Virus record (IMG/VR): IMGVR_UViG_2617270976_000013 | Location: 1 to 18,202 of that record | From: a virus | Lineage: Duplodnaviria; Heunggongvirae; Uroviricota; Caudoviricetes | DNA: 18,202 nucleotides | Strand: one strand, 5' to 3' | The notes under the pieces: generated by a model | The model's database searches: none | What the model saw: only the letters and a program-made list of their open reading frames with translations | What the model was told of the DNA's origin: nothing | In this document: positions 1-15,964 of the stretch, one piece after another | Numbering within the stretch: the first letter of the stretch is position 1 | Layout: every line of letters starts with the position of its first letter | Position numbers and translations under genes: made by a program

Positions 1-1254
1 ATGCTGGAACAAATGGGCATTGCCGCGAAGCAAGCCTCGTATAAATTAGCGCAACTCTCCAGCCGCGAAAAAAATCGCGTGCTGGAAAAAATCGCCGATG
101 AACTGGAAGCACAAAGCGAAATCATCCTCAACGCTAACGCCCAGGATGTTGCTGACGCGCGAGCCAATGGCCTTAGCGAAGCGATGCTTGACCGTCTGGC
201 ACTGACGCCCGCACGGCTGAAAGGCATTGCCGACGATGTACGTCAGGTGTGCAACCTCGCCGATCCGGTGGGGCAGGTAATCGATGGCGGCGTACTGGAC
301 AGCGGCCTGCGTCTTGAGCGTCGTCGCGTACCGCTGGGGGTTATTGGCGTGATTTATGAAGCGCGCCCGAACGTGACGGTTGATGTCGCTTCGCTGTGCC
401 TGAAAACCGGTAATGCGGTGATCCTGCGCGGTGGCAAAGAAACGTGTCGCACTAACGCTGCAACGGTGGCGGTGATTCAGGACGCCCTGAAATCCTGCGG
501 CTTACCGGCGGGTGCCGTGCAGGCGATTGATAATCCTGACCGTGCGCTGGTCAGTGAAATGCTGCGTATGGATAAATACATCGACATGCTGATCCCGCGT
601 GGTGGCGCTGGTTTGCATAAACTGTGCCGTGAACAGTCGACAATCCCGGTGATCACAGGTGGTATAGGCGTATGCCATATTTACGTTGATGAAAGTGTAG
701 AGATCGCTGAAGCATTAAAAGTGATCGTCAACGCGAAAACTCAGCGTCCGAGCACATGTAATACGGTTGAAACGTTGCTGGTGAATAAAAACATCGCCGA
801 TAGCTTCCTGCCCGCATTAAGCAAACAAATGGCGGAAAGCGGCGTGACATTACACGCAGATGCAGCTGCACTGGCGCAGTTGCAGGCAGGCCCTGCGAAG
901 GTGGTTGCTGTTAAAGCCGAAGAGTATGACGATGAGTTTCTGTCATTAGATTTGAACGTCAAAATCGTCAGCGATCTTGACGATGCCATCGCCCATATTC
1001 GTGAACACGGCACACAACACTCCGATGCGATCCTGACCCGCGATATGCGCAACGCCCAGCGTTTTGTTAACGAAGTGGATTCGTCCGCTGTTTACGTTAA
1101 CGCCTCTACGCGTTTTACCGACGGCGGCCAGTTTGGTCTGGGTGCGGAAGTGGCGGTAAGCACACAAAAACTCCACGCGCGTGGCCCAATGGGGCTGGAA
1201 GCACTGACCACTTACAAGTGGATCGGCATTGGTGATTACACCATTCGTGCGTAA
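1..1254 (+). CDS. proA: gamma-glutamyl phosphate reductase (proline biosynthesis)
   Basis: 417-aa ORF beginning [21 protein letters not shown], recognised as E. coli ProA over its full length; the window starts at its ATG. Confidence 0.95.
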
Positions 1255-1260
1255 ATAAAA

Positions 1261-1323
1261 CCGGGTGATGCAAAAGTAGCCATTTGATTCACAAGGCCAT
1301 TGACGCATCGCCCGGTTAGTTTT
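1261..1323 (+). terminator. putative proA terminator stem-loop
   Basis: Inverted repeat ccgggtgatgc (1261-1271) / gcatcgcccgg (1305-1315), one G-U position, followed by ttagtttt. The loop is long, so this is not a textbook terminator. Confidence 0.4.
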
Positions 1324-1368
1324 AACCTTGTCCACCGTGATTCACGTTCGTGAACATGTCCTTTCAGG

Positions 1369-1444
1369 GCCGATATAGCTCAGTTGGTAGAGCAGCGCAT
1401 TCGTAATGCGAAGGTCGTAGGTTCGACTCCTATTATCGGCACCA
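1369..1444 (+). tRNA. thrW: tRNA-Thr (anticodon CGU)
   Basis: 76-nt sequence GCCGATATAGCTCAGTTGGTAGAGCAGCGCATTCGTAATGCG...GGTTCGACTCCTATTATCGGCACCA with cloverleaf features, CGT anticodon in the loop and 3' CCA; located immediately after proA as in E. coli. Confidence 0.9.
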
Positions 1445-1458
1445 TTTAAATCAATAAG

Positions 1459-2622
1459 TTACACATCACTAGTACCTTCCTTATTTTTTGACTGGGACAA
1501 ATTTGGGACCGATGGGTTCAGGATCGAGTCTATTTGCCGTGCATGTTCGGTAAGGTGATTAGGTGCGAGGTGAGCATATCGACGAACCATTTCGATAGAC
1601 TCCCAGCCTCCCATTTCCTGTAACACTGACAACGGGACTCCGGCTTGAACCAGCCAACTTGCCCAGGTGTGTCTCAAGTCGTGAAATCTGAAATCATCAA
1701 TACCTGCTCGTCTCAGCGCCGCTTTCCAGGCTGTGTTTGCGTCATACCGCATCTTCCTGACCGTTGGCGCTTTCGTTCCGTCTGGTTTGGTACAGCTTTC
1801 CTTGTACACAAATACCCAACGGTGATGATTCCCGATTTGTTTTTTCAATACGCGACATGCAGTATCATTCAGCGCAACGCCAATTGCGCGGTTTGATTTA
1901 CTCTCTTCCGGGTTTATCCATGCCACCCGGCGCTGCATATCTATTTGTTGCCATTCAAGGTTGATGATGTTCGAGCGTCTTAAGCCTGTTGCCAGTGCAA
2001 ATTCAACAACAGACTTTAATGGCTCCGGACATTCATCAATCAGCCTTTGTGCTTCATGGGGCTCCAGCCAGCGGATCCGTTTATTCTTTGGTTGAGGCAC
2101 TTTAATAATTGGTGCCTTATCCAGCATTTTCCATTCACGCTCTGCGGCTCTTAGTAGGGCCTTTATAAATGAAAGATGCGTAGCCTTCGTTGCAACGGAC
2201 GCTGGTTTTGGCGTGTATTCTGGAACAGGTTTCCCTTTTTTTCTGCATGCTTCTGCCCTGAGTTTCCAGTTTTCCTCATGACGCCGGTTCGTCATTTTCT
2301 GCATTGCTGAATAAATTTTTGATTCAGTAATGTCTCTTAGTTGCATTCCTGCGAAATGTTGAAGCCAGAATCCGATCCGGCTTTTGTCATCGTCCAGTGA
2401 TTTTTTATGTGCTTTCTCTTCAAGCCACCTGACACACGCTTCCTCGAACGTTATATCAGGTATTTCACCAAGTTTGCTGACCCGCCATGCTTCAGCCTTT
2501 AGCTTGTCATGGAGTTCTGTCGCCTGCCTTTTGTCCTTTGTTCCAAGAGACTGTTTAAATCTTTTACCGTTCGGCAATGTGAAACTGGCGTACCATATTT
2601 CACCTCTGCGGAAGAGTGACAT
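1459..2622 (-). CDS. int: tyrosine site-specific integrase, P22-type
   Basis: 387-aa ORF with C-terminal catalytic motifs ([10 protein letters not shown] ... RRYAHL) typical of phage tyrosine recombinases; SD GAGGA upstream of the ATG at 2622; adjacent to the tRNA. Confidence 0.95.
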
Positions 2623-2849
2623 TTTCTTTCCTCTGTTATGCCATCACCCGCGCTCACCTGGACAGTATGCAGCGGAGACTGAAGCGCCGCAATGCAGGCT
2701 TGCCGTGTTGTGAGGTAAGGATATTTTGGCTTGGTTGGATCTTTACGTGTTGCCTGTAGGCGGCCTGTTCGTATCCAGTTGGTGGCGGTTGGTCTGGATA
2801 TCTTAAGAAACTGACAGGCCTCATCGAGTGTGAGGCTGTATGATTCCAT
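2499..2849 (-). CDS. xis: excisionase, P22-type
   Basis: 116-aa product starting [31 protein letters not shown], an HTH-type excisionase; overlaps the int 5' end; SD GAGGT 5 nt upstream of the ATG at 2849. The ORF track start at 2879 was rejected in favour of this ATG. Confidence 0.8.
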
Positions 2850-3099
2850 GGTTACCTCTGCTTTTTGAACGCATGTCACGTAACTTCTTAATGTGTTCTG
2901 CCGTTTCGATCTCTTCTGCTATCCGATCTGCATCAGCTTTATTCACAGGTTCAAAGTCATGATTAAAGCGGAACATGCTGGCGATACATGTTCTGCCTTT
3001 TCGGATGTAGTGAACTTTGTTGTGGGTAGAACGCAGGATTTTGCAGGGAGTGCCGTGGTGGTCGACGTACCAGGTGTTAGGAAAAATGATTCTGAACAT
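2821..3099 (-). CDS. hypothetical phage protein (92 aa)
   Basis: ORF with SD GAGGTG about 7 nt upstream of the ATG at 3099; no family recognised. Confidence 0.5.
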   Translation of the reverse strand: MFRIIFPNTWYVDHHGTPCKILRSTHNKVHYIRKGRTCIASMFRFNHDFEPVNKADADRIAEEIETAEHIKKLRDMRSKSRGNHGIIQPHTR

Positions 3100-3146
3100 T
3101 TTTACACCTCAGTTGGACGATGTTGAAATTTGCTGCTTTGAGGCCA

Positions 3147-3365
3147 TCACAGTCCCCATTGTTTGTTCTTAAGTTCGATCTCCTCCTGGCAACTTGCACA
3201 AGTCCGACAACCCTGAACAGCCAGGCGTCTTCGCTCATCTATCGGATCGCCACACTCACAACAATGAGTTGCGGATACAGTCTGGTAGTTCAGACGACGC
3301 ATTTTTATTGCTGTATTGCGCTGTAATTCTTCGATTTCTGATGCTGAATCAATGATGTCTGCCAT
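3147..3365 (-). CDS. TraR/DksA-family C4-type zinc-finger protein
   Basis: 72-aa product with CCECGDPIDERRRLAVQGCRTCASC, a four-cysteine zinc finger of TraR/DksA type; SD GGAAG upstream. Confidence 0.8.
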   Translation of the reverse strand: MADIIDSASEIEELQRNTAIKMRRLNYQTVSATHCCECGDPIDERRRLAVQGCRTCASCQEEIELKNKQWGL

Positions 3366-3414
3366 CTTCCATTAATCCCTGAATTGTTGGTTAATACGCT
3401 TGAGGATGAATGCG

Positions 3415-3441
3415 AACAATAAAAAAGGAGCCTGTAGCTCC
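3415..3441 (-). terminator. putative intrinsic terminator (minus strand)
   Basis: Hairpin ggagc-ctgta-gctcc (3427-3441); on the minus strand it is followed directly by a T6 run (plus-strand aaaaaa 3421-3426). Confidence 0.4.
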
Positions 3442-3463
3442 CTGATGATTTTGCTTTTCATGT

Positions 3464-3679
3464 TCACCGTTCCTTAAAGACGCCGTTTAACATGCCGATC
3501 ACCAGGCTTAAATGAGTCGGTGTGAATCCCATCAGCGTTACCGTTTCGCGGTGCTTCTTTAGTACGCTACGGCAAATGTCATTGACGTTTTTATCCGGAA
3601 ACTGCTGTCTGGCTTTTTTGATTTCATAATTAGCCTGACGGGCAATGCTGCGAAGGGCGTTATTATGTTCTATTGTCAT
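3464..3679 (-). CDS. hypothetical protein (71 aa), translationally coupled downstream of the 250-aa gene
   Basis: ATG at 3679 with GAGG about 5 nt upstream, 8 nt after the stop of the 250-aa ORF; product MTIEHNNALRSIARQANYEIKKARQ..., no family recognised. The ORF track extends it to 3817 but that overlaps the upstream gene. Confidence 0.5.
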   Translation of the reverse strand: MTIEHNNALRSIARQANYEIKKARQQFPDKNVNDICRSVLKKHRETVTLMGFTPTHLSLVIGMLNGVFKER

Positions 3680-3686
3680 ATTGGCC

Positions 3687-4439
3687 TCACACTTCGAATG
3701 CCAGTTGAGGGGTAAAGACGTCCCGTTCAGCGTTGTAATTAAGTGAACTGGCACTGTTGAATGATTCAATGCGTTCCACAAGAACTTGCGTACGGGTTTC
3801 TTTACTTGCGGGAGCATATGGCGAACCTACCCAGGATTTGTCGATGCCTATATTTCTTGCGACGTTCGTGCTGTCTGCAGACGAAAGCGGTACATGAGTA
3901 AAAATGTCTTTATTTAACATCCGTAACCCATGAATCTTGGTGATTGGGTAGCCGTACTGATCTACAACATGACGTATAAGATCGCGTAGTTTAGCCCGAC
4001 ACGCTCTCGGTCGTTTTGCATCGTATTCCCCCATCGAGCCGATGCAGACGCGGGGAAACTCATGGCACAGACGAATAAATCGCTCATCTGGTTCGTTCAT
4101 GTGCCACACCGGAGCACCAATAAATTTACCGTGAGGCCATGCCGCAATCAGGGCGTCATTCTCTTCACTGGTTCCGCCGATAACATCCGGGATAACCGCG
4201 AATGAGAAACGAGGGTGATTACCCCAGCGTTCAACAAATCTGTAATATTCATTCCAGTCTATGGCCTTGTTTTTTGTCCAGAATGTGAATGCACCATTAT
4301 CAAGAGCAAATGATTGGGTGACTTCGGAAGCCAGATCAATCTGAGCTGGATTAGCAAAACTGATGAATGCGTGTCTGCCTTTCCAGGCTTTCAACGCACA
4401 GGTATCGGGAGTTATTGGACCACCGTGAAAATGAATCAT
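3687..4439 (-). CDS. 250-aa protein with TGT-superfamily (tRNA-guanine transglycosylase-like) motifs; candidate DpdA-type 7-deazaguanine DNA transglycosylase
   Basis: Ordered motifs resembling bacterial Tgt: LDNGAF (46-51) vs TDSGGFQ, AVIPDVIGG (81-89), CIGSMG (132-137) vs VGGL, KDIFTHVP (177-184) vs IDMFDCVMP, TNVARN (191-196) vs TRNARN. No CxCxxC zinc site. The ORF itself is secure; the family call is from a by-eye alignment. Confidence 0.5.
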   Translation of the reverse strand: MIHFHGGPITPDTCALKAWKGRHAFISFANPAQIDLASEVTQSFALDNGAFTFWTKNKAIDWNEYYRFVERWGNHPRFSFAVIPDVIGGTSEENDALIAAWPHGKFIGAPVWHMNEPDERFIRLCHEFPRVCIGSMGEYDAKRPRACRAKLRDLIRHVVDQYGYPITKIHGLRMLNKDIFTHVPLSSADSTNVARNIGIDKSWVGSPYAPASKETRTQVLVERIESFNSASSLNYNAERDVFTPQLAFEV

Positions 4440-4594
4440 ACACTCTCCCGTTTATTATTTATCTCCTCAGCCAGCCGCTGGGCTTTCAGCGGATTTCGGA
4501 TAACAGAAAGGCCGGGAAATACCCAGCCTCGCTTTGTAACGGAGTAGACGAAAGTGATCGCGCCTACCCGGATATTATCGTGAGGATGCTTCAT
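4436..4594 (-). CDS. small protein (52 aa), lambda orf60a-like position immediately downstream of exo
   Basis: ATG overlaps the exo stop (ATGA) and its stop overlaps the ATG of the 250-aa gene (ATGA); product [52 protein letters not shown]. Below the ORF track length cutoff. Confidence 0.5.
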
Positions 4595-5271
4595 CGCCAT
4601 TGCTCCCCAAATACAAAACCAATTTCAGCCAGTGCCACGTCCATTTTTTCGATGAACTCCGGCACCATCTCGTCAAAATTCGCCATGTACTTTTCATTCC
4701 GCTCAATCACGACATAATGCAGTCCTTCACGCTTCATCCGCGGGTCATAGTTGGCAAAGTACCAGGCATCTTTTCGTGTCACCCACATGCTGTACTGCAC
4801 CTGGGCCATGTAAGCCGATTTTATGGCCTCGAAACCACCGAGCCGGAACTTCATGAAATCCCGGGAGGTAAACGGGCATTTCAGCTCAAGGCCATTGCCG
4901 TCACTGCATAAACCATCGGGAGAGCAGGCGGTGCGCATACTTTCGTCGCGATAGATGATCGGGGATTCAATAACATTTACGCCGGAAGTGAACTCAAACA
5001 CGGTTCTGGCGTCGTTCTCGTACTGTTTTCCCCAGGCCAGCGCTTTAGCGTTAACTTCCGGAGCCACACCGGTGCAAACCTCAGCCAGCAGGGTGTGGAA
5101 GTAGGACATTTTCATGTCAGGCCACTTCTTTCCTGATCGGGGCTTTGCTATCACGTTGTGAACTTCTGAAGCGGTGATGACGCCGAGCCGTAATTTGTGC
5201 CATGCATCATCCCCCTGTTCGACAGCTCTCACGTCGATCCCGGTACGCTGCAGGATAATGTCCGGTGTCAT
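4591..5271 (-). CDS. exo: lambda-type 5'-3' exonuclease (Red alpha)
   Basis: 226-aa product [40 protein letters not shown]... matches lambda Exo along its length; ATGA overlap with bet. Confidence 0.95.
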
Positions 5272-6053
5272 GCTGCCACCTTCTGCTCAGTGGCTTTCTG
5301 TTTCAGGAATCCAAGAGCTTTCACTGCTTCGGCCTGTGTCAGTTCTGACGATGCGCGAATGTCGCGGCGAAATATCTGGGAACAGAGCGGCAATAAGTCG
5401 TCATCCCATGTTTTATCCAGGGCGATCAGCAGAGTGTTAATCTCCTGCATGGTTTCATCGTTAACCGGAGTGATGTCGCGTTCTGGCTGACGTTCTGCAG
5501 TGTATGCTGTATTTTCGACAATGCGCTCGGCTTCATCCTTGTCATAGATACCAGCAAATCCGAAGGCCAGACGGGCACACTGAATCATGGCTTTATGCCG
5601 TAACATCCGTTTGGGATGCGACTGCCACGGCCCCGTGATTTCTCTGCCTTCGCGGGTTTTGAATGGTTCGCGGCGGCATTCATCCATCCATTCGGTAACG
5701 CAGATCGGATGATTACGGTCCTTGCGGTAAATCCGGCATGTACAGGATTCATTGTCCTGCTCAAAGTCCATGCCATCAAACTGCTGGTTTTCATTGATGA
5801 TGCGGGACCAGCCATCAACGCCCACCACCGGAACAATGCCGTTCTGCTTATCAGGGAAGGCGTAAATTTCTTTCGTCCACGGATTAAGGCCGTACTGGTT
5901 GGCGACGATCAACAATGCGATGAACTGCGCATCGCTGGCATCACCTTTAAATGCCGTCTGGCGAAGAGTGGTGATCAGTTCCTGTGGGTCGACAGAATCC
6001 ATGCCGACACGTTCAGCCAGCTTCCCTGCCAGCGTTGCGAGTGCTGTACTCAT
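5268..6053 (-). CDS. bet: lambda-type single-strand annealing protein (Red beta)
   Basis: 261-aa product [66 protein letters not shown]... matches lambda Bet. Confidence 0.95.
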
Positions 6054-6058
6054 CCGTT

Positions 6059-6355
6059 TTATACCTCTGAATCAATATCAAACTGGTGGTGAGCAATGGT
6101 TTCAACCATGTACCGGATGTGTTCTGCCATGCGCTCCTGAAACTCAACATCGTCATCAAACGCACGGGTAATGGCTTTTTTGCTGGCCCCGCAGCGTTGC
6201 AAATGATCGATACAGAGTGATTCAAACAGGTGCTGTGGAAGACCTTTTTCCATGTCGTCTGCCAGTTCTGCCTCTTTCTCTTCACGGGCGATCTGCTGGT
6301 AGTGACGTGCCCAGCTCTGAGCCTCAAGACGATCCTGAATGTAATAAGCGTTCAT
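6059..6355 (-). CDS. gam: RecBCD inhibitor Gam (short, GamS-like form)
   Basis: 98-aa product [47 protein letters not shown]... matches lambda Gam; SD AGGAG 8 nt upstream. The in-frame upstream extension has a stop and no ATG. Confidence 0.9.
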
Positions 6356-6431
6356 GGCTGAACTCCTGAAAATGGCTGTGAAAATATCGCCTGCGAAATG
6401 CCAGGCTGATTAGGAAAACAGGAAAGGGGGG

Positions 6432-6590
6432 TTAGTGATTCAGGCCGTTACCGCGTCCGTCGAGAAAAACTTCCACGAGCAAATCACGGGTATAAGTGCG
6501 CTCGATGCCGCGATGCAGATATAGCCGTCCGCGTAAATTAGCTGATGCAGTCCAGGTACCATCTTTGTGTTTGACCAGCATTCCTGGCAT
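6432..6590 (-). CDS. small ORF (52 aa) in the kil/cIII position, function unknown
   Basis: ATG at 6590 preceded by GAGGTG (5-nt spacer); product MPGMLVKHKDGTWTASANLRGRLYLHRGIERTYTRDLLVEVFLDGRGNGLNH; below the ORF track cutoff. Overlapping alternative ORFs exist in other frames. Confidence 0.35.
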   Translation of the reverse strand: MPGMLVKHKDGTWTASANLRGRLYLHRGIERTYTRDLLVEVFLDGRGNGLNH

Positions 6591-6899
6591 GACCGCACCT
6601 CAATTAACGGTCTGCATTCCGTAATGTTGATGAACCATAAAAACTCCTGCCCGTAAGCTGGGCTGCTGAACATATAGAGACTTCTGCGCGTATTCAGGCG
6701 GTGGATGGCCGCCGGTTGTCATAACTAAGCCGCCTCGTTGAAGCGACTGAGGTATGAAATGTTGAGTTAATTTCAGCTGGTCACACCGACGTTCACGCGT
6801 CCGTTTCACCCCTCGCACTCCCCGAAGCCTGCTGAAATTCAAACTGCGGATCTAAGCGGTCATCGCAACGGTGAATCAGGTAGTTGCCGTATCGTTGTG

Positions 6900-6990
6900 T
6901 TGTTGCGATGAACTTATTTAAAACTACAGTTGTTTTATCGTCAACAACAAAAGTTGTTTTATTGGTTGTTTTAGATATAACTGGTTGTAT
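6900..6990 (-). promoter_or_regulatory. putative leftward early promoter and operator array (pL/OL-like)
   Basis: Minus strand reads TTGACG, 17 nt, TTAAAT; overlapping repeats of TAAAACAAC/GTTGTTTT in direct and inverted orientation (plus strand agttgttttatcgtcaacaacaaaagttgttttattggttgtttta). Confidence 0.4.
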
Positions 6991-7085
6991 TTAGGATGGA
7001 TTTATTTTGTGACTTGAATCGCATAGCGATAACTGAAGCGAGGTTATGGTGGTTTTTTTAACGGTGTGTGTGATGAGGGGGGGGG

Positions 7086-7113
7086 CAAAAGAAAACCCGG
7101 CACGGTGACCGGG
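7086..7113 (-). terminator. putative intrinsic terminator downstream of the repressor gene (minus strand)
   Basis: GC stem cccgg (7096-7100) / ccggg (7109-7113) with an 8-nt loop; on the minus strand followed by TTTTCTTTT and then a C9 tract (plus-strand G9 at 7077-7085). Confidence 0.4.
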
Positions 7114-7234
7114 ATTCTTACGCCGTTAGGTAAAGATATTATTGCGGTGGCTTAATATTACTACCTAGAGCAAAGATAGGAATTAGTTCTTTACTGAATG
7201 AGCACAATGCCCAGTTGATAATTTTTAATTGGTA

Positions 7235-7924
7235 CTACCCATGCTTCCTATATGTCTGCGGCATGCTCCCAATAACCTTACCGAAGATGAACACCCGGTT
7301 CATCTCGTCTTTCTCGATCGGGTCCCACGGTGAGTAGCTTTTGTTATCAGAGATGACCAGCAGCTTATCCTTCATCATTTGCAGGCGCTTTACATGGGCT
7401 GTGTCGTCGTACAGAAACGCATAGATACCATCACCGTCGAAAGATTTAACTGTGATATCAACGAACAGCAGATCACCTGGTTCGATCGTTCCTGACATGC
7501 TGTCACCACGCACGTTAATGATGCGGATATTTTCCGCCTTCCTACCATCGAACATGTGACGAGCATCGTCAAACGAGTACTCAACCGAGCGTAGAACTTC
7601 TACAAACTCACGGTTGATGACTCCCGGCCCAGCACTGACTTCTATATCAAGAACGTCAATCTTGAAGTATTTGGAATGGCTGACAGTTGATTGTATTGGT
7701 TGCACTGTACTGTCTGACATATTTCCAACGCCAGAAGATAACCATTCTGCGCGCACACCCAAAGCGTTCGCGATCTCCACGATTTTAGTTGTTTGATTAG
7801 CTTTCCCTGTTTCGATTTTCTGAATAGCAGCCTGGCTAACCCCGACCAAATCCCCAAGCGCCTTTTGTGTAAGGCCTCGCGCTAATCTGGCTTCTTTAAG
7901 TCTTTCTGAGAGTGTTGTTTTCAT
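7235..7924 (-). CDS. cI: CI-like prophage repressor, HTH plus S24 (LexA-type) peptidase domain
   Basis: 229-aa product MKTTLSERLKEARLARGLTQKALGDLVGVSQAAIQKIETGK... with C-terminal GDSM and VKRL (Ser/Lys dyad context). Start chosen at ATG 7924 (not 7990) to leave a 105-bp operator region; no SD, consistent with a leaderless mRNA. Confidence 0.9.
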   Translation of the reverse strand: MKTTLSERLKEARLARGLTQKALGDLVGVSQAAIQKIETGKANQTTKIVEIANALGVRAEWLSSGVGNMSDSTVQPIQSTVSHSKYFKIDVLDIEVSAGPGVINREFVEVLRSVEYSFDDARHMFDGRKAENIRIINVRGDSMSGTIEPGDLLFVDITVKSFDGDGIYAFLYDDTAHVKRLQMMKDKLLVISDNKSYSPWDPIEKDEMNRVFIFGKVIGSMPQTYRKHG

Positions 7925-8028
7925 AGTCCAAATGTACAACCAAGGTTTTATTCCATCAAACGAAAATGGTTGTTGACTAAAAACAACCATGGTTTTAATC
8001 TTGATTCAAATTAACCACGGAGGTTGTT
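7925..8028. promoter_or_regulatory. divergent promoter/operator region (OR, pR, pRM-like)
   Basis: Three operator-like sites sharing AACCA/TGGTT half-sites (caaccaaggtttt, aaaatggttgttg, aaaacaaccatggtttt with perfect palindrome aaccatggtt). Rightward TTGACT (7973-7978) then TTTAAT; leftward TTGATG, 17 nt, TACATT ending about 7 nt before the repressor ATG. Confidence 0.55.
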
Positions 8029-8259
8029 ATGAACCCAGCTATCAAAACAGCGATCAATATCGTTGGTTCACAAAAGAAACTGGGCGCTGCTTGCGAAGTT
8101 TCACAGCAGGCCGTCTATAAGTGGCTTCACAACAAAGCAAAGGTATCCCCTGAACATGTCGGCAGCATTGTTACGGCTACTGGTGGAGTAGTGAAGGCAT
8201 ACCAGATTCGCCCGGATCTTCCGAAGTTGTTTCCACACACCGAAAAGAACGCAGCTTAA
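8029..8259 (+). CDS. cro: Cro-like HTH regulator (YdaS-like)
   Basis: 76-aa product MNPAIKTAINIVGSQKKLGAACEVSQQAVYKWLHNKAKVSPEH...; SD GGAGG 5 nt upstream; divergent from the repressor across the operator region. Confidence 0.85.
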   Translation: MNPAIKTAINIVGSQKKLGAACEVSQQAVYKWLHNKAKVSPEHVGSIVTATGGVVKAYQIRPDLPKLFPHTEKNAA

Positions 8260-8271
8260 ATTTCCATTTCA

Positions 8272-8284
8272 CGCTCTTTAACAA
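8272..8284 (+). promoter_or_regulatory. boxA-like element (nutR-equivalent position)
   Basis: CGCTCTTTAACAA, 12 nt after the cro stop, closely matching the boxA consensus (CGCTCTTTA / rrn TGCTCTTTAACAA); no convincing boxB hairpin follows. Confidence 0.5.
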
Positions 8285-8328
8285 TAAGCAATCAACTTAA
8301 CAGTCAATTCAAACTAAAGGAGTCAATT

Positions 8329-8868
8329 ATGCAACCACTTACATACCAACAGACTAGCGGATTTAGCCCGACTGCGGTGATAAATCGTTCTCAAACAAAA
8401 CAGGTGCCAGGCCACGAAAAGATCCGTGATGCCGTCCGCGCCTGGTCGGCTGTAGATAATCAGGATGTCGTTGCCACACTCATTGTGAATGAGTATCGGG
8501 AGCAGGGCGGCGGCACCATCGATTTCCCTGATGATGTCAGCCGTGCACGCCAGAAGCTGTTCCGCTTCCTCGATAACAAATTCGATTCTGAAAAATACCG
8601 AAATAACGTGCGTGAACTGACCCCGGCAATTCTGGCGGTACTACCGCTGGAATATCGCGGTTACCTGGTTGAGCAGGATAGCTTCATGGCTAGGTTGGCT
8701 GAAATGGAAAAGGAACTCAGTGAGGCAAAACAGGCTGTCATTCTCAACGCACCACGCCACCAGAAACTGAAGGAAATTAGTGAAGGTATTGTGTCGATGT
8801 TTCGTGTGGACCCAGATCTGGCTGGTCCATTGATGGCGATGGTTACTACCATGCTGGGGGCGATATGA
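8329..8868 (+). CDS. CII-position regulator, YdaT-family
   Basis: 179-aa product; segment ARQKLFRFLDNKFDSEKYRNNVRELTPAILAVLP resembles Rac YdaT ARNTQKIFRWVEKDTPDAVEKMQALLPAIEKSMP; strong SD AAGGAG; follows cro as cII does in lambda. Confidence 0.7.
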   Translation: MQPLTYQQTSGFSPTAVINRSQTKQVPGHEKIRDAVRAWSAVDNQDVVATLIVNEYREQGGGTIDFPDDVSRARQKLFRFLDNKFDSEKYRNNVRELTPAILAVLPLEYRGYLVEQDSFMARLAEMEKELSEAKQAVILNAPRHQKLKEISEGIVSMFRVDPDLAGPLMAMVTTMLGAI

Positions 8869-8954
8869 CAGGTTCAGAAATGGCGAAAGCCGGTCTGCTG
8901 GAACAGAACCGACTTTCAGGTGCAAACCGTAACACACTCATTGCGGGAGGAATT

Positions 8955-9560
8955 ATGGCAAACACTGCTGAGATATTCAATTTTCCAGTGCCGGATGTGG
9001 CACAAAAGGAGCCGCGCGTGGCAGATCTCGATGATGGTTATACGCGCATTGCAAATGAGTTGCTGGAAGCTGTGATGCTGGCCGGATTAACACAGCACCA
9101 GCTTCTGGTCTTCCTGGCTGTCATGCGCAAAACATATGGCTTTAATAAAAAACTGGATTGGGTGAGCAACGAGCAACTTTCCGAGTTGACCGGGATATTG
9201 CCGCACAAGTGTTCTGCTGCAAAAAGTGTTCTGGTAAAGCGTGGGATTTTTATTCAGAGCGGGCGGAATATCGGCATTAATAATGTGGTCAGTGAATGGT
9301 CAACATTACCCGAATCAGGTAAGAAAAATAAAGTTTACCTGAAAGAGGTAAATTTACCTGAATCAGGTAAGAAAAGTTTACCCAAATCAGGTAAAGACGT
9401 TTACCCGAATCAGGTAAACACAAAAGACAAACTAACAAAAGACAATATAAAACCTTTTTCGTCCGAGAATTTTGGCGAATCCTCTGACCAGCCAGAAAAC
9501 GATCTTCCTGTGGTGAAACCGGATGCTGCAATTCAGAGCGGCAGCAAGTGGGGGATCTGA
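8955..9560 (+). CDS. O: replication initiator, lambda O-like (N-terminal origin-binding domain)
   Basis: 201-aa product; VADLDDGYTRIANELLEA...LAVMRKTYGFNKK matches lambda O (VADLDDGYARLSNMLLEA...LRKTYGWNK); SD GGGAGG upstream of ATG 8955; contains iterons. Shorter than lambda O. Confidence 0.85.
   Translation: MANTAEIFNFPVPDVAQKEPRVADLDDGYTRIANELLEAVMLAGLTQHQLLVFLAVMRKTYGFNKKLDWVSNEQLSELTGILPHKCSAAKSVLVKRGIFIQSGRNIGINNVVSEWSTLPESGKKNKVYLKEVNLPESGKKSLPKSGKDVYPNQVNTKDKLTKDNIKPFSSENFGESSDQPENDLPVVKPDAAIQSGSKWGI
9306..9418. repeat. origin iterons (ori) inside the O gene
   Basis: Four to five copies of about 18 bp TTTACCYRAATCAGGTAA (starts near 9306, 9333 degenerate, 9353, 9377, 9400), each internally palindromic (ACCTGA-a-TCAGGT), followed by an AT-rich stretch (9418-9462). 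Confidence 0.7.
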
Positions 9561-9609
9561 ATGGAGCGTTAATGATGCAGCGGATATCATCAGGTGCCTA
9601 GTACGGGTG

Positions 9610-9861
9610 ATGGAGATCATCAAGCAGGATAGCCAGCAGAAAGAAGGTAATCAGGCATTAATGTTGAAACAGTACTTTGTTAATCTGCTAATAATGGAAC
9701 TGTACGAGGAAGTTCATAACGGTGATGCGGCTGATTCTGTTTTTAAAAGTACGGAACCTACACAAGTACTTGATAACTTATGGAGCAAATGGCAGGAGGC
9801 TATAGCTATTTTTGATATTTGGAATTACCCAGTTGCGACTGAGGAAGACTTGGCAGACTAA
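9610..9861 (+). CDS. hypothetical protein (84 aa) in the position normally occupied by a helicase loader
   Basis: ORF from ATG 9610 (MEIIKQDSQQKEGNQALMLKQYFVNLLIMELYEE...); no similarity to lambda P or DnaC recognised; start uncertain. Confidence 0.4.
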   Translation: MEIIKQDSQQKEGNQALMLKQYFVNLLIMELYEEVHNGDAADSVFKSTEPTQVLDNLWSKWQEAIAIFDIWNYPVATEEDLAD

Positions 9862-10055
9862 TTTTCAGCACATTTGATTTCCAATAATCAACCAGCCATA
9901 ATCATGCCATTGGAGCCTGAACAACTCCGGTGACTTCTGCGCTAAACGGGGACGTTTATGCGCACATACAATCCAACCTATCTTCTCCATTCACAGATGC
10001 AGAAATGCACCTGCGTTTTTTTGCATCCAACGTTTGACCTCTGCGGAGGTGAAGC

Positions 10056-10511
10056 GTGAACCTCCCACAAGACGGTATCAAATTGCATCGCGGTAACTTC
10101 ACCGCTATCGGTCAGCAGATCCAGTCTTATCTGGAGGACGGCAAATGCTTTCGCATGGTGCTTAAACCGTGGCGCGAAAGACGCAGTCTTTCCCAGAATG
10201 CACTCAGCCACATGTGGTACAGCGAAATCAGCGAGTACCTCATCAGCAGGGGGAAAACGTTCGCTACTGCAGTATGGGTAAAAGATGCACTCAAACACAC
10301 ATACCTCGGTTATGAAACCAAGGACTTGGTTGATGTCGTAACCGGCGAAATCACTACTATCCAGTCGTTACGCCATACCTCCGATCTTGATACCGGAGAG
10401 ATGTATGTCTTCCTGTGTAAGGTTGAAGCCTGGGCGATGAATATTGGCTGCCACCTGACTATTCCGCAGAGCTGCGAGTTCCAGCTGCTGCGCGACAAGC
10501 AGGAGGCGTAA
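10056..10511 (+). CDS. ninB: NinB/Orf-family recombination protein (YbcN-like)
   Basis: 151-aa product with [17 protein letters not shown] motif (lambda NinB RSLDQNRKLWACLGDVS); GTG start with GGAGG 6 nt upstream. Confidence 0.85.
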
Positions 10512-10681
10512 TGGCTACACCGCTTATTCGGGTCATGAACGGACACATCTACAGAGTACCAAATCGTCGTAAGCGTAAACCGGAGCTGAAGCCTTCCGAA
10601 ATACCAACACTGCTCGGATATACCGCCAGCCTGGTTGATAAAAAATGGTTGCGACTGGCAGCAAGGAGGAATCATGGCTGA
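10511..10681 (+). CDS. ninE: NinE-like small protein
   Basis: 56-aa product [56 protein letters not shown]; SD AGGAGG; TAATG overlap with ninB; below the ORF track cutoff. Confidence 0.65.
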   Translation: MATPLIRVMNGHIYRVPNRRKRKPELKPSEIPTLLGYTASLVDKKWLRLAARRNHG

Positions 10682-10964
10682 TTTGAGAAAAGCAGCGCGT
10701 AGTCGGGAATGCCAGGTAAGAATCCCTGGCGTATGTAATGGCAACCCTGAAACGTCTGTACTGGCACATATCCGGCTGACTGGATTGTGCGGCACCGGTA
10801 CCAAACCGCCAGACCTGATTGCCACCATTGCATGTTCTGCCTGCCACGACGAAATCGACCGCCGCACACATTTTGTCGATGCTGCATATGCAAAAGAATG
10901 CGCGCTGGAAGGTATGGCGAGAACACAGGTTATCTGGCTGAAAGAGGGGGTTATTAAGGCGTGA
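10674..10964 (+). CDS. YbcO-like cysteine-rich protein (DUF1364-type)
   Basis: 96-aa product [34 protein letters not shown]...[11 protein letters not shown] with conserved Cys/His; SD AGGAGGA; same order (ninB-like, ninE, ybcO, rusA) as in the DLP12 prophage. Confidence 0.75.
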
Positions 10965-11323
10965 ATACCTACAGCATCACATTACCCTGGCCTCCGAGCA
11001 ATAATCGCTATTACCGCCATAATCGCGGGCGCACGCACGTCAGCGCAGAGGGGCAGGCATACCGCGATAACGTCGCCCGAATCATTAAAAACGCAATGCT
11101 GGATATCGGCCTGGCTATGCCTGTGAAAATCCGCATTGAGTGCCACATGCCGGATCGCCGTCGCCGTGACCTGGATAATCTGCAAAAAGCCGCTTTTGAC
11201 GCACTCACTAAAGCAGGTTTCTGGCTGGATGATGCTCAGGTCGTTGATTACCGTGTTGTGAAGATGCCTGTTACCAAAGGTGGGAGGCTGGAACTGACCA
11301 TCACCGAAATGGGGAATGAATGA
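10961..11323 (+). CDS. rusA: Holliday junction resolvase RusA
   Basis: 120-aa product [74 protein letters not shown]... closely matches E. coli RusA; GTGA overlap with the upstream gene. Confidence 0.9.
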
Positions 11324-11460
11324 TGTTTGAGTTTTATATGGCAGAACTTCTTCGCCACCGCTGGGGGCATCTGCGCTTATATCGTTTCCCCGGTTCTGTT
11401 TTGACCGATTACCGAATACTGAAGAATTACGCCAAAACCCTGACAGGAGCAGGAGTATGA
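11320..11460 (+). CDS. ylcG: YlcG-like small protein
   Basis: 46-aa product [46 protein letters not shown]; ATGA overlap with the rusA stop. Confidence 0.65.
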
Positions 11461-11545
11461 AGCCAGAGATAACAATCAACTAATACTGTTTTATTGATTT
11501 TTGCTTGTAATTGGCGTTCTGGTCTGATTTTTGTGGAGTAAGTTG

Positions 11546-11929
11546 ATGCGTGATATTCAGATGGTTCTTGAGCGTTGGGGAGCGTGGGCGGCTAATAATC
11601 ATGAAGATGTGACCTGGTCGTCCATTGCCGCCGGTTTTAAGGGATTAATTCCTTCAAAAGTAAAATCTCGCCCGCAATGTTGTGACGATGACGCGATAAT
11701 CATTTGCGGGTGCATGGCCCGTCTGAAAAAGAACAACAGCGATTTGCACGATTTATTAGTAGATTATTATGTAGTCGGTATGACATTCATGTCACTGGCA
11801 GGTAAGCATTGCTGCTCTGATGGTTATATCGGGAAAAGGTTACAGAAGGCTGAGGGTATAATTGAAGGGATGTTAATGGCATTAGATATCCGGTTAGAGA
11901 TGGATATCGTTGTTAATAACTCTAATTAA
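11546..11929 (+). CDS. late-gene antitermination protein Q (QuuD-like)
   Basis: 127-aa product [60 protein letters not shown]... with the Cys cluster of Q-family antiterminators; SD GGAG upstream. Confidence 0.9.
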
Positions 11930-11941
11930 TATGCCAATTGT

Positions 11942-11970
11942 TTACTAAAAATTATTAAAAATGGGGCGTT
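11942..11970 (-). terminator. putative intrinsic terminator for the porin gene (minus strand)
   Basis: Stem ggggcg / cgcccc with loop ttgaga (11953-11970); on the minus strand followed by ATTTTTAATAAT. Confidence 0.45.
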
Positions 11971-12117
11971 GAGACGCCCCCAAAAATAAAGGGTAATATA
12001 TAACAGAAGGTTTATATAGTTAGAAGCAAGTTTGTGCTCATAAAGGAAGTGGTTTGAGGGAGCCATTTATATGTGGGGGAGGAAAAGCCCCCCGCAACAT
12101 ATCTTTTAGTAATCAAA

Positions 12118-13200
12118 TTAGAACTGGTAAACCATACCTACAGCAACGATATCATCGGTAGCAACGCCAGATGCTTTCGTGAAATCGCTCTTATCAATCA
12201 GGTTGATTTTGTAATCAACAAAAGTGGACATATTTTTGTTGAAGTAATAGGTTGCACCTACATCAATATATTCAACCAGGTCCTGATCACCCCACGCACC
12301 CAAGTCTTTTCCTTTAGATTGCAGGTAAGCAACGGACGGACGCAGACCGAAGTCGAACTGATATTGTGCAACTACTTCGAAGTTTTGTGCTTTGTTGGCA
12401 ATATGGTTATTACCAAAAACAGTCATGTTCTGGGTTTCAGAATAGGTGGTAGCCAGATAGATGTTGTTCGCATCATATTTCAGACCAGCTGCCCATACTT
12501 CAGCATTTTGACCAGATGCATTCAGGCTGTTGTTACCGTAGATAACCTGATTATTAGTGCGGTCAGATTTAGCATAGGTTGCACCTACACCGAATCCTTC
12601 ATACTCATAAGTAGTGGAGAAACCGAAACCATCACCATTAGCTTCAGTTACGTCAGTGCGGTCATTTTTACCCTGATACTGAGCAGCAAAGTTCAGACCA
12701 TCAACCAGACCAAAGAAGTCATTGTTACGATAAGTTGCAACACCTGTGGTGCGACCAGTCATGAATACATCTGTTTGGGTCCAGGTATCGCCACCGAATT
12801 CTGGCAGAACGTCGGTCCATGCACCAATATCGTATGCTACACCGTAGTTACGGCCATAATCGATGGAGCCGTAGTCACCGAATTTCAGGCCAGCGAAGGC
12901 AAGACGGGTTTTATCTTTGGAGGAACCTTGAGATTCAGCGCGGTTGCCTTTGAATTCATATTCCCACTGACCGAAACCAGTCAGTTGATCGTTGATTTGG
13001 GTTTCACCTTTGAAGCCAAGACGGGCATAAGTAGTATCACCATCATCTGCATCATTAGAGGAGAAGTAGTGCTTAGCATTAACTTTCCCGTACAGATCCA
13101 GCTTGTTACTGTCTTTATTATAAATTTCAGCTGCCTGAGCAGACATCGCCATCAGTACTGATGCAGTTACAGCAGAAATTGCCACTGTTAATTTTTTCAT
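12118..13200 (-). CDS. OmpC/NmpC-family outer-membrane porin (prophage moron)
   Basis: 360-aa product with signal peptide [23 protein letters not shown], Gly/Tyr/Asn-rich beta-barrel composition and C-terminal F (..VGMVYQF); lies between Q and the lysis genes in opposite orientation, as nmpC does in DLP12. Confidence 0.9.
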
Positions 13201-13626
13201 CGTGAGCCCTTTTTTTGAACTATTATTAAAAAATGATGTCACTGCGCGATAAATATTCATCTAATCAATGTGATTATTTCAAGATGTAAGTTTTGGTTTC
13301 TCATTTGATTTGTGAAGTAGATCTCTATTTTTATCTGAACTTTTTCTATCGAATCCTATTCATGGCTCTTGGCTGAATAAAAATAAATCTATTAGCCAAT
13401 TTATATTAATGGCTGTTATTTATAAGTGCTCTATAATTTGAAGGTTCAATTTAAATCGGCTAAAAATAACGCTGGAAATTATTTGTTGGTTATTTGTTGA
13501 GATTTGCTTATGTATTTGTAGTGGTGTTTTCAATACTCGGTAGCATTCTCGCAAATATCATTTAGTGGTTTACGTACGTAAAAAATTGGTTATGCTGTTA
13601 AGAGTGGTTACTTCGTCACACAGCTT

Positions 13627-13659
13627 AAACCCGCCGTCGAGCGGGTTTTTCCATTTTTT
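13627..13659 (+). terminator. intrinsic terminator upstream of the lysis cassette
   Basis: Stem aaacccgc / gcgggttt with loop cgtcga, followed by tttttccatttttt on the plus strand, about 110 nt before the holin start. Confidence 0.5.
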
Positions 13660-13771
13660 GAGTCTCGATATTAGCTGATAACCCAATACCTGAGTTATTC
13701 ACTGACTCCGAGTCTGTTACGTTTCGTAGTATTCCCTCAATTTACACCCGCTTTGTCTGCGAGGTGGGGTT

Positions 13772-13987
13772 ATGAAATCCATGGATAAGTTAACAACGGG
13801 TGTCGCCTATGGCACCTCAGCAGGTAGTGCCGGGTACTGGTTTTTACAGCTGCTAGATAAAGTCACGCCCTCACAGTGGGCGGCAATTGGAGTGCTGGGT
13901 AGCCTGGTATTTGGCCTGCTGACGTACCTGACAAACCTTTATTTCAAGATTAAAGAAGATAAGCGCAAGGCTGCGAGAGGTGAATAA
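13772..13987 (+). CDS. S: class II holin (phage 21 S-type pinholin) with dual-start motif
   Basis: 71-aa product [71 protein letters not shown]; two TM helices; Met1 and Met4 (MKSM); SD GAGGTGGGG. Confidence 0.9.
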
Positions 13988-14484
13988 TGCCTCCATCATT
14001 ACGAAAAGCCGTTGCTGCTGCTATTGGTGGCGGAGCAATTGCTATAGCATCAGTGTTAATTACTGGCCCAAGTGGTAACGATGGTCTGGAAGGTGTCAGC
14101 TACATACCATACAAAGATATTGTTGGTGTATGGACTGTATGTCACGGGCATACAGGAAAAGACATCATGCTCGGTAAAACGTATACCAAAGCAGAATGCA
14201 AAGCCCTCCTGAATAAAGACCTTGCCACGGTCGCCAGACAAATTAACCCGTACATAAAAGTTGATATACCGGAAACAACGCGCGGCGCTCTTTACTCGTT
14301 CGTTTACAACGTGGGCGCTGGCAATTTCAGAACATCGACGCTTCTTCGCAAAATAAACCAGGGCGATATCAAAGGCGCATGTGATCAGCTACGTCGCTGG
14401 ACATATGCTGGCGGTAAGCAATGGAAAGGTCTCATGACTCGTCGTGAGATTGAGCGTGAAATCTGTTTGTGGGGTCAGCAATGA
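13987..14484 (+). CDS. R: SAR endolysin (T4-lysozyme-like muramidase with signal-anchor-release domain)
   Basis: 165-aa product; N-terminal Gly/Ala-rich weakly hydrophobic segment [18 protein letters not shown] followed by a Glu, Asp, Thr catalytic spacing ([15 protein letters not shown]); TAATG overlap with the holin. Confidence 0.9.
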
Positions 14485-14941
14485 ACAGAGTAACCGCGAT
14501 TATCTCCGCTCTGGTTATCTGCATCATCGTCTGCCTGTCATGGGCTGTTAATCATTACCGTGATAACGCCATTACCTACAAAGCCCAGCGCGACAAAAAT
14601 GCCAGAGAACTGAAGCTGGCGAACGCGGCAATTACTGACATGCAGATGCGCCAGCGTGATGTTGCTGCACTGGATGAAAAATACACGAAGGAGTTAGCTA
14701 ATGCGAAAGCTGAAAATGATGCTCTGCGTGATGATGTTGCCGCTGGTCGTCGTCGGTTGCACATCAAAGCAGTCTGTCAGTCAGTGCGTGAAGCCACCAC
14801 CGCCTCCGGCGTGGATAATGCAGCCTCACCCGACTGGCAGACACCGCTGAACGGGATTATTTCACCCTCAGAGAGAGGCTGATCACTATGCAAAAACAAC
14901 TGGAAGGAACCCAGAAGTATATTAATGAGCAGTGCAGATAG
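14481..14941 (+). pseudogene. Rz: Rz (i-spanin) disrupted by a -1 frameshift
   Basis: N-terminal about 113 aa ([45 protein letters not shown]...) is lambda Rz-like, but the frame runs into ...[19 protein letters not shown] (the Rz1 C-terminus) and stops at 14882; the lambda Rz C-terminus [31 protein letters not shown] is in another frame ending at 14941. Confidence 0.7.
14701..14850 (+). pseudogene. Rz1: Rz1 (o-spanin lipoprotein), C-terminally altered by the same frameshift
   Basis: Embedded [52 protein letters not shown] (49 aa) with lipobox VVVGC; lambda Rz1 continues ...[21 protein letters not shown] (60 aa), sequence that here sits in the Rz frame. Confidence 0.6.
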
Positions 14942-14972
14942 AGCTGCCCATATCGATGGGCAACTCATGCAA

Positions 14973-15266
14973 TTATTGTGAGCAATACACACGCGCTTCC
15001 AGCGGAGTATAAATGCCTAAAGTAATAAAACCGAGCAATCCATTTACGAATGTTTGCTGGGTTTCTGTTTTAACAACATTTTCTGCGCCGCCACAAATTT
15101 TGGCTGCATCAACAGTTTTCTCCTGTCCAATTCCCGAAACGAAGAAATGATGGGTGATGGTTTCCTTTGGTGTTACTGCTGTCGGTTTGTTTCCAACAGT
15201 AAACGTCTGTTGAGCACATCCTGTAATAAGCATTGCCAGAGCGGCAGAAAACAACATTTTTTTCAT
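14973..15266 (-). CDS. bor: Bor lipoprotein (serum-resistance moron)
   Basis: 97-aa product MKKMLFSAALAMLITGCAQQTFTVGNKPTAVTPKETITHHFFVSGIGQEKTVDAAKICGGAENVVKTETQQTFVNGLLGFITLGIYTPLEARVYCSQ with lipobox LITGC; matches lambda Bor. Confidence 0.9.
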   Translation of the reverse strand: MKKMLFSAALAMLITGCAQQTFTVGNKPTAVTPKETITHHFFVSGIGQEKTVDAAKICGGAENVVKTETQQTFVNGLLGFITLGIYTPLEARVYCSQ

Positions 15267-15446
15267 CTTATTATCCTGCATTGTTAAAAACGGCAGAATC
15301 CTATGTGACAACAATTAAACGATAGTTAAATGGATTGATGAAAATTAAAACTATATAGGTGTACGGTCAGACTATTGGAGGTAGTCAGGATTTGAATGTC
15401 AGTCTGTTGTCGGCATTCTGGCAATGCAATTTGGATAAAGCGGGGA

Positions 15447-15569
15447 TTAAAAAGATAGAGGCGAGCCGGTCAGGTAGAAATGAATCAGGCTCAAAGTGAA
15501 GCGGAAAAGGTCTGTGGCACAAGCTGATGCAGCCATAATTACAGCCTGATGATTTGTGGAATGAAACAT
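15447..15569 (-). CDS. candidate small hydrophobic ORF (40 aa), unverified
   Basis: ATG at 15569 preceded by GGAGG with a 6-nt spacer; product MFHSTNHQAVIMAASACATDLFRFTLSLIHFYLTGSPLSF; no homolog recognised. Confidence 0.25.
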   Translation of the reverse strand: MFHSTNHQAVIMAASACATDLFRFTLSLIHFYLTGSPLSF

Positions 15570-15649
15570 GTTGAACCTCCTTAATTGATGTTATTCGAGT
15601 GATGAAGGCATTCTGTCCTTCTATAGTGTCCAGTAAATCAAACAGGAAA

Positions 15650-15705
15650 CTTGTCCAACGTGTTGGACAAGCCTCTCCATTAGTGAGTTGTATTGATCAC
15701 AACTC
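15650..15705. repeat. pair of inverted repeats of unknown function
   Basis: cttgtccaac-gt-gttggacaag (15650-15671, perfect 10-bp arms) and gagttgt-attgatc-acaactc (15685-15705, 7-bp arms); lie between bor and the tail-module remnant with no flanking T-run. Confidence 0.6.
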
Positions 15706-15808
15706 TACAAAGAATTCATTACTGGGTAGATGAAAATAGTTTCACGATGAATGGAGGAGGCTATGTCGGTGGCTTCTTCATTGGAGTATCCGCGAATGCC
15801 TGCAATGG

Positions 15809-15964
15809 ATGATTGATGACGGCGTGGTGTCCCGTATTGATCTGGATATCCGCCGCACCGGGATTAATGAACTGGGTAACAGTATCACTCTCTGGCGTCG
15901 TGACGGACCGGTAATGATTTCTTTTGATGATCTGTGGAGTGCGATAACGCATGGCGGACAGTGA
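15809..15964 (+). pseudogene. truncated ORF overlapping the J start, possibly the 3' remnant of an upstream baseplate gene
   Basis: Open frame from the stop at 15737 to 15964 encoding ...MIDDGVVSRIDLDIRRTGINELGNSITLWRRDGPVMISFDDLWSAITHGGQ; overlaps J by 14 nt as upstream baseplate genes often do; no SD or N-terminal domain. Confidence 0.3.

Follow-up and report, generated by a model that had tools for sequence, protein, structure and literature searches.

Start of the pL operon in an N-less lambdoid prophage lineage of Escherichia coli

In phage lambda, N, nutL and tL1 occupy the stretch directly downstream of pL and oL and upstream of kil-gam-bet-exo, and nutR is found after cro. Derivatives of lambda carrying nin5 or byp grow independently of N once the relevant terminators have been removed. 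The lambdoid phages HK022 and HK639 have no N and possess a conserved non-coding RNA, put, that begins at the pL start; put is a two-stem RNA that brings about antitermination without a protein partner, acting through the zinc-binding domain of RNA polymerase beta'. Nus-factor antitermination with a boxA alone has a precedent in CRISPR arrays (PMC7665894).

Here we analysed an 18,202-nt stretch of DNA (IMG/VR record IMGVR_UViG_2617270976_000013, positions 1 to 18,202; the window), which is a lambdoid E. coli prophage. The region between its predicted pL and gam corresponds in position to N, nutL and tL1 of lambda, but an N ORF is lacking, the leader carries neither boxA nor boxB, cro is not followed by a boxB, and the first gene is not preceded by a tL1-type terminator. 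From these sequence comparisons we consider it likely that the pL operon starts without N by design, with an untranslated leader, a kil gene that carries a stop codon in the window copy and no tL1-type terminator.

Early-region layout and the absence of N, nutL and put

The features of the window are collected in Table 1. The gam gene forms the lower boundary of an interval (6356-6850) that an earlier note on this DNA had flagged for its overlapping small ORFs and an arginine-rich frame; further genes on the plus strand are an O-like gene, ninB, rusA and lysis genes. The predicted pL sits within the AAAACAAC operator repeats, and the same words occur at pR as the inverted repeats I1, I3, I14 and I15; an automated promoter scan did not list this promoter. 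From the promoter and the operators we infer that the pL transcript starts near 6909, and it is from 6909/6908 onwards that the window is homologous to phages with other immunity types. A tRNA gene (1369-1441, plus strand; anticodon loop CGU, Thr) adjoins the integrase gene, which suggests that the attachment site lies there; this tRNA was the sole match at the Rfam gathering score in the window.

Table 1 Features of the window (positions are those of the whole stretch)
Feature	Position	Strand	Evidence or remark
int	1459-2622	minus	
Terminator-like site	3425-3443	minus	Terminator scan; early operon; 8-bp stem then TTTTATTGTT
Terminator-like site	4508-4530	minus	Terminator scan; early operon
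exo	4591-5271	minus	
bet	5268-6053	minus	
gam, host-nuclease inhibitor, 98 aa	6059-6355	minus	phrog_259, E 1.7e-59, full length
kil, predicted KilR-type FtsZ-inhibitor gene, 68 codons + stop	6432-6638	minus	ATG 6638-6636, AGGAG Shine-Dalgarno sequence 5 nt upstream
52-codon ORF, Kil residues 17-68 from internal Met17	6432-6590	minus	phrog_294 positions 29-80, E 2.3e-26
77-aa shadow ORF, out of frame over kil	6440-6673	minus	Not a gene
In-frame TGA, kil codon 13	6600-6602	minus	Relatives CGA or CGC (Arg)
40-codon ATG ORF (MTTGGHPPP...)	6600-6722	minus	Nested in the kil frame
Conserved structured RNA element	6697-6757	minus	Covariation; fold z = -3.9 for 6765-6690
5' leader of the pL transcript	6758-6909	minus	Comparative; holds the arginine-rich frame from TTG 6842
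GTG, sole plausible start for an arginine-rich peptide (M)KRTRERRCDQLK...	6807-6809	minus	GGGGAG 8 nt upstream
5'-terminal leader stem-loop (AUCGCAAC...GUUGCGAU)	6860-6909	minus	Fold of 6911-6858: -12.9 kcal/mol, z = -3.0
Predicted pL	6916-6944	minus	-35 TTGACG 6944-6939, 17-nt spacer, -10 TTAAAT 6921-6916
Intrinsic terminator ending the cI transcript, upstream of pL	7096-7113	minus	CCCGGTCACCGTGCCGGG then TTTTCTTTTG
cI, LexA/S24-type	7235-7990	minus	
cro	8029-8259	plus	
Consensus boxA CGCTCTTTAACAA	8272-8284	plus	13 nt after the cro stop
cII	8329-8868	plus	
Terminator-like site, before ninB	9995-10018	plus	Terminator scan; early operon
Q-like gene	11531-11929	plus	

The earlier statement that the interval holds no conventional N gene was borne out. 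Profile searches with Pfam, PHROGs and NCBIfam gave no match to an N or CIII family for any ORF in 6356-6920, while returning the Kil match (phrog_294) described below; the stretch from gam (6355-6059) to the predicted pL contains no N-like ORF. In the leader, the minus strand has no boxA with up to two mismatches that could belong to a nutL, and no boxB-like stem with a G...A penta- or hexaloop; the inspection for boxA/boxB-like RNA proposed earlier thus turned up neither.

The comparison with put was made with a covariance model (R1) built from HK022 putL and putR and the putL of HK639, phiEt88, CobraSix and PdC23. Scores were 60-102 bits for known puts and 55.6 bits for phiEt88 putR, which had been held out, and the model gave no match in 6590-6920 at E<10 with filters off and none after cro. 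Nor does the leader have a second copy near pR: in 7990-8900 we found only the operator words and chance matches of 75% over 16 nt. A superficial likeness to put stem I (GAAACGGACGCG...CGTCGG) was ruled out by the same model with its positive control. Like HK022 and HK639, the window lacks N and has a conserved non-coding RNA from the predicted pL start onwards. It further resembles HK022 in the C-terminal domain of its repressor (cI translations compared by eye) and HK639 in carrying the structured element described below, but it differs from both in that its leader fails the put model and has no counterpart after cro.

The layout cI-(defence moron)-pL-leader-kil-gam-bet-exo recurs in PhiR47_2, PhiR34_1, an O157:H7 prophage and 4A7, and the isolated phages with the N-less arrangement include 4A7 (Bievrevirus), PhiR34_1, Turner and PhiR47_2. 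The only antiterminator annotated in the complete 4A7 genome is of the Q type. Leader and element together are present in 2235 of 5426 complete E. coli genomes (41%). Since isolated phages and so large a share of genomes have this layout, N-lessness is, judged by its distribution, the norm of the lineage and not decay of the window prophage. The earlier alternative that N had been lost, stranding boxA and Q, is not supported by this distribution in the form in which it was put. A literature search on GevT/GevA, Bievrevirus and N-less lambdoids returned nothing specific. A lambdoid lineage present in about two fifths of the sequenced E. coli genomes would thus run its early program without N or a put RNA.

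The same data bear on the idea that N was deleted only recently, the window prophage being a dead remnant and its odd ORFs deletion scars. The window copy does show decay, namely the nonsense codon in kil and, relative to 4A7, the absence of P, of Ren and of the C-terminal part of O. However, the pL-leader-kil junction is the same, within a few point substitutions, in complete isolated phages and in thousands of E. coli genomes, so that the absence of N predates the window copy and is compatible with phage growth. We regard a recent deletion as almost certainly wrong.

The arginine-rich frame and the interrupted kil gene

The ORFs listed in the earlier note exist, but the relation between them had been misread. 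The arginine-rich 80-codon frame does run from TTG 6842 to the stop codon 6602-6600 on the minus strand (N-terminus LNFSRLRGVRGVKRTRERR), yet it is not independent of the 52-codon ORF: the two share one reading frame and are separated by the single TGA at 6602-6600. The frame was said to have no ATG and contains two, at 6722 and 6638; that it has no Shine-Dalgarno sequence is not strictly true either, since GTG 6809-6807 is preceded by one. The 40-codon ORF (6722-6600) belongs to the kil frame and not, as had been written, to another one. Elsewhere it is conserved only over its first 8-9 codons, and when other phages are read from this AUG, a stop codon comes after 11-33 codons, in frames that differ relative to the conserved downstream nucleotides; judged by these comparisons, at most its first codons matter. 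The 77-aa ORF (6673-6440) was found in another frame as described. Profile searches gave no family match for it, and the variation across it peaks at the third positions of kil and not at its own.

To follow the leader in relatives, we collected 116 copies via an 18-mer anchor and 125 via an independent downstream anchor. Between TTG 6842 and ATG 6722, 38 of 90 unique variants do not keep the arginine-rich frame open: 33 have a TAG at codon 32 (among the carriers is the isolated phage PhiR34_1), four a 5-nt insertion and one a 1-nt insertion; a conserved first gene of about 100 aa after pL under coding constraint was not found, this broken frame being the only open one. Allele counts over the three codon positions are flat, both in the arginine-rich part (11:7:7) and in 6722-6639 (9:9:10). 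The tblastn search with the arginine-rich peptide found relatives only in 16 near-identical phages, with an amino-acid identity of 84-97% that is lower than the nucleotide identity of 96-99%. No Pfam, PHROG or NCBIfam family matched the frame, except that its last 21 residues are the N-terminus of Kil (phrog_294 positions 4-24).

Judged by these comparisons, the frame is non-coding in the leader, as its interruptions, the lack of a third-position bias and the lack of family matches indicate, and the earlier suggestion of an N that starts at a non-canonical codon is not supported. The arginine codons ACG CGT GAA CGT CGG have another source: they make up both arms of a hairpin rich in CG (GACG 6801-6798, loop CGTGAA, CGTC 6791-6788), which was read by eye and has the same pairing in the fold of 6842-6765. 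We conclude from these comparisons that the 80-codon arginine-rich frame arises by chance, the kil frame happening to stay open on its upstream side across the leader.

A shorter product may be translated from GTG 6809 (MKRTRERRCDQLK..., at least 20 aa) and could in principle be a minimal N-like or Nun-like RNA-binding factor. The GTG directly precedes KRTRERR and has GGGGAG 8 nt upstream, and a GTG or ATG start is kept in 124 of the 125 copies (GTG in 102, ATG in 22; GGG in the remaining one). The peptide RTRERRCD resembles RRRERRAE, the arginine-rich motif of lambda N. Against this stands the variable C-terminal end: the peptide has 20 codons in 53 copies (MKRTRERRCDQLK(S/L)TQHFIP) and is longer in the rest, with 29, 41 or >42 codons. 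Moreover, R-to-C and R-to-W changes occur inside the motif, substitutions are flat over the codon positions, neither leader has a boxB-like target, no family matches, and the GACG...CGTC hairpin accounts for the arginine codons. A peptide of 20 aa would also be without the NusA- and RNAP-binding regions of lambda N. Taken together, we find such a factor very unlikely.

On its profile matches, the gene at the end of the frame is kil. The uninterrupted ORF of PhiR47_2 matches phrog_294, described as 'Kil protein for bacterial septation inhibition', at positions 4-80 of 83 (E 2e-38), the ATG equivalent to 6638 aligns with the start of HK225 Kil, and in the O157:H7 prophage PGAP annotates a 207-nt 'phage encoded cell division inhibitor' from that ATG. 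Allele counts over the codon positions of kil are 38:42:70, with an excess at third positions (p=0.002). The intact 68-aa protein aligns end to end with NF008465, the 73-aa KilR of Rac, and its gene has the same place just upstream of gam in the pL operon. Its score of 63.1 bits lies below the curated NCBIfam cut-off of 92, and there was no Pfam match; by these scores, Kil is a relative but not an equivalog of KilR and does not belong to the family of lambda's own 47-aa Kil.

In contrast to KilR of Rac, the window copy is interrupted at codon 13. The codon at 6602-6600 is CGA or CGC in PhiR34_1, PhiR47_2 and the O157 prophage and TGA in the window; a C-to-T change of CGA to TGA would have split one gene into the apparent pair of ORFs. 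Of 115 copies taken from phage records and IMG/VR contigs, 113 encode an uninterrupted Kil (68 aa, in one case extended to 79 aa), and the window is the only one of the 115 with the stop; it also has a private T8M change. The window kil is thus a pseudogene, and its nonsense codon is the only pathological feature within the flagged interval. The 52-codon ATG ORF (6590-6432, minus strand) is present with GAGGTG 5 nt upstream, as the earlier note had it, although this apparent Shine-Dalgarno sequence is the coding sequence of kil before Met17.

For annotation, this means that the arginine-rich ORF should be called neither N nor, as in one phage record, a long 'Kil', and that the 52-codon ORF is a kil pseudogene fragment. 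The PhiR47_2 record (2576-2962) contains a 128-aa 'Kil' that begins at a GTG inside the leader, which is a mis-annotation, and in the PhiR34_1 record (2584-2817) the out-of-frame 77-aa shadow ORF is annotated instead of kil.

The pL leader and a conserved structured RNA element

On the comparative evidence, the first 271 nt of the pL transcript are untranslated. They consist of the 5' stem-loop, a conserved G-rich leader (6874-6758) and a structured element (6757-6697). The stem-loop is replaced in an O157-type variant that has other sequence upstream of ~6874. The leader core carries 0.25 alleles per site, compared with ~0.59 at the first and second codon positions of kil, and this conservation above that of kil suggests that the core has some function. 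Rfam gave no relevant match in 6300-8500 at the gathering score or at E<=10; the best scores there were 11-20 bits against gathering scores of 35-82 (E 0.8-10).

Such conservation could also be explained if the leader (~6874-6758), possibly together with the element, were a new cis-acting RNA that makes RNA polymerase resistant to termination, as an analogue of put with unrelated sequence. The leader sits exactly at the place of putL or nutL, from the predicted +1, and its start is a module boundary common to phages of different immunity, but it has no second copy downstream of pR, unlike putL/putR or nutL/nutR. Its low diversity is that of a non-coding sequence in 41% of E. coli genomes; however, high identity is typical of recently exchanged prophage modules. 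As for folding, the segment 6842-6765 has z = -2.3, and the common polymorphisms in the predicted stems all preserve pairs (e.g. U-G/C-G 15:28, A-U/G-U 24:19), whereas shuffled sequences fold just as well as the entire 115-nt core (z = +0.76), the changes are one-sided only, some singletons break pairs and there is too little diversity for real covariation. As the O157 variant shows, other sequence can stand in for the first 35 nt. Terminator-like sites downstream in the operon of phages with neither N nor put would fit such an RNA. On balance, we consider it quite unlikely and prefer an N-less start by design.

The element at 6757-6697 stands on firmer ground. BLAST showed that about 60 nt recur, without annotation, in phi80, HK225 and phages of Klebsiella and Enterobacter, and a pattern scan found the element in 17 further Enterobacteriaceae genomes and in HK639. 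It folds into two hairpins. The first has a basal helix UCAUA/UAUGA (6757-6753 with 6723-6719), followed by helices of 2 bp and 9 bp; the basal helix buries the invariant AUG 6722-6720, the ORF of which begins MTTGGHPP(P/T/S). The second is the invariant GGCGG-CCAUCCA-CCGCC (6713-6697). In an alignment of 22 distinct sequences from E. coli, Enterobacter, Citrobacter, Klebsiella, Huaxiibacter, phi80, HK225 and HK639, 98.1% of the cells were paired, seven pairs had double-sided changes and 35 cells were compensatory. None of 500 shuffles reached the observed values, and slid controls gave 28-54% paired. The element had no match in Rfam. By this covariation it is a well-supported RNA motif new to Rfam, with a fixed place in the pL operon of several enterobacterial genera.

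The surroundings of the element differ between lineages. In all 20 copies of other than the window type with a readable flank (16 Enterobacteriaceae genome loci, phi80, HK225, KO-TP1 and HK639; the 17th locus ends at a contig edge), a hairpin with a T-run abuts the element upstream, and the flanking genes differ from copy to copy. The window lineage has the leader in place of this terminator, with the junction at TTTCATACC. We considered the genes upstream of the element in phi80, HK225, KO-TP1 and HK639 as candidates for N, and none matches a named N family; we accordingly make no claim of a joint loss of N and the terminator.

A wider reading takes the pL-kil region as one or two undescribed cis-acting RNAs in about 40% of E. 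coli genomes. The first would be the G-rich leader, replacing N, nutL and tL1 by protein-independent read-through; the second would be the covarying element, widespread in Enterobacteriaceae and always just past the first leftward terminator, which would bury the invariant AUG of MTTGGHPP(P) and control expression of the delayed-early gene that comes first. Such control could conceivably work by stalling of ribosomes at the proline run. We regard this joint reading as unlikely.

The HK639 GenBank record (3688-3716) annotates the invariant GGCGG-CCATCCA-CCGCC hairpin as a terminator. A T-run after this hairpin (AGCATATTTTT) occurs only in HK639 and one Enterobacter copy (L148), and not in the window or the others.

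Nucleotides 5-16 of the predicted pL transcript (CAACAACACAAC; 6894-6905, minus strand) are complementary, over 12 nt without a mismatch, to the GcvB R1 seed GUUGUGUUGUUG, and flanking G-U and C-G pairs could stretch the duplex to ~15 bp. The stretch follows the CACAACA logic of GcvB targets and of the AgvB sponge, and it is absent from the O157-type leader variant. The CA-rich 5' end had raised the suspicion of an AgvB-type anti-sRNA, which we rejected, as AgvB maps 3' of pR' and not at pL. Two further candidates were set aside: EcOnc33 of Sakai (Sp6) is located in the late region and is unrelated, and the likeness of GGCGGCTTAG to the ops/RfaH sequence GGCGGTAG, judged by eye, requires an insertion and is not conserved in KO-TP1.

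Terminators, boxA and decay of the window copy

The terminator scan found no terminator-like site with a stem >6 bp between pL and the end of exo, and a tL1-type intrinsic terminator is absent from the window lineage. Farther along the operon, the sites at 4530-4508 and 3443-3425 precede a DksA-like ORF, xis and int, the latter site being just upstream of this DksA/TraR-like zinc-finger ORF (3365-3147).

In the N-less start that we favour, transcription would begin at pL near 6909 and run through kil (6638-6432) as the first gene, then gam, bet and exo. These four genes would be expressed from pL without antitermination, and N would be dispensable for them because the lineage has no tL1-type terminator. 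This missing terminator is also the likeness to the nin5 and byp derivatives of lambda; those are laboratory mutants, however, whereas the window lineage is natural, widespread and keeps possible terminators downstream. If the downstream terminator-like sites are efficient, some antitermination device would still be needed.

On the rightward side, one candidate is the boxA after cro, at the place that corresponds to lambda nutR. Its 12-mer GCTCTTTAACAA has one exact match in the whole window, and no hairpin with a G...A loop follows it as a boxB. As in the rrn and CRISPR systems, the consensus boxA is found near the start of a long operon, and no phage-encoded partner is evident. Speculatively, it could recruit host NusB/NusE, NusA, NusG and SuhB without a phage protein, and the bound Nus complex could shield pR transcripts from Rho by analogy with rrn operons and CRISPR arrays. 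The window operon differs from those systems in being mostly translated and in that the boxA is missing from sister phages such as 4A7. The cro-cII junction with boxA occurs in only six phages, which share one immunity type and are without exception N-less; since 4A7 has none, boxA cannot be a general solution for the lineage.

Outside the flagged interval, the window lacks DNA of 4A7 in two places. At 9556-9872 and the flanking O-like ORF (8865-9560), about 5.2 kb are missing relative to 4A7, comprising P, Ren, several morons and the last third of O at its C-terminal end: O has 231 aa in the window and 339 aa in 4A7 (annotated 1020-nt CDS), and the ORF after O matches only the C-terminal part of phrog_1779. 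The window prophage is thus probably replication-defective, to judge from these ORFs. Between the cI stop and the cI terminator, 7118-7193 corresponds to the final ~76 nt of the 4A7 gene for ASCH/'GevA', and the rest (~1.4 kb) of the two-gene GevT/GevA moron (toxin-antitoxin or defence) is missing; in this alignment, 7118-7193 looks like a deletion scar.

Two further ORFs may be mentioned. In the left operon, a 250-aa ORF (3687-4439, minus strand) matches positions 11-266 of a 509-position queuine tRNA-ribosyltransferase-like PHROG, that is, the first half only, which may mean that it is a truncated moron. A DLP12-like gene set makes up the late region (ybcN/ninE/rusA/ylcG/Q-like/holin/endolysin/Rz), and in the opposite orientation to it lies a 380-aa ORF (12118-13260, minus strand; phrog_410, unknown function), which stands where 4A7 has an annotated gene for the porin OmpC.
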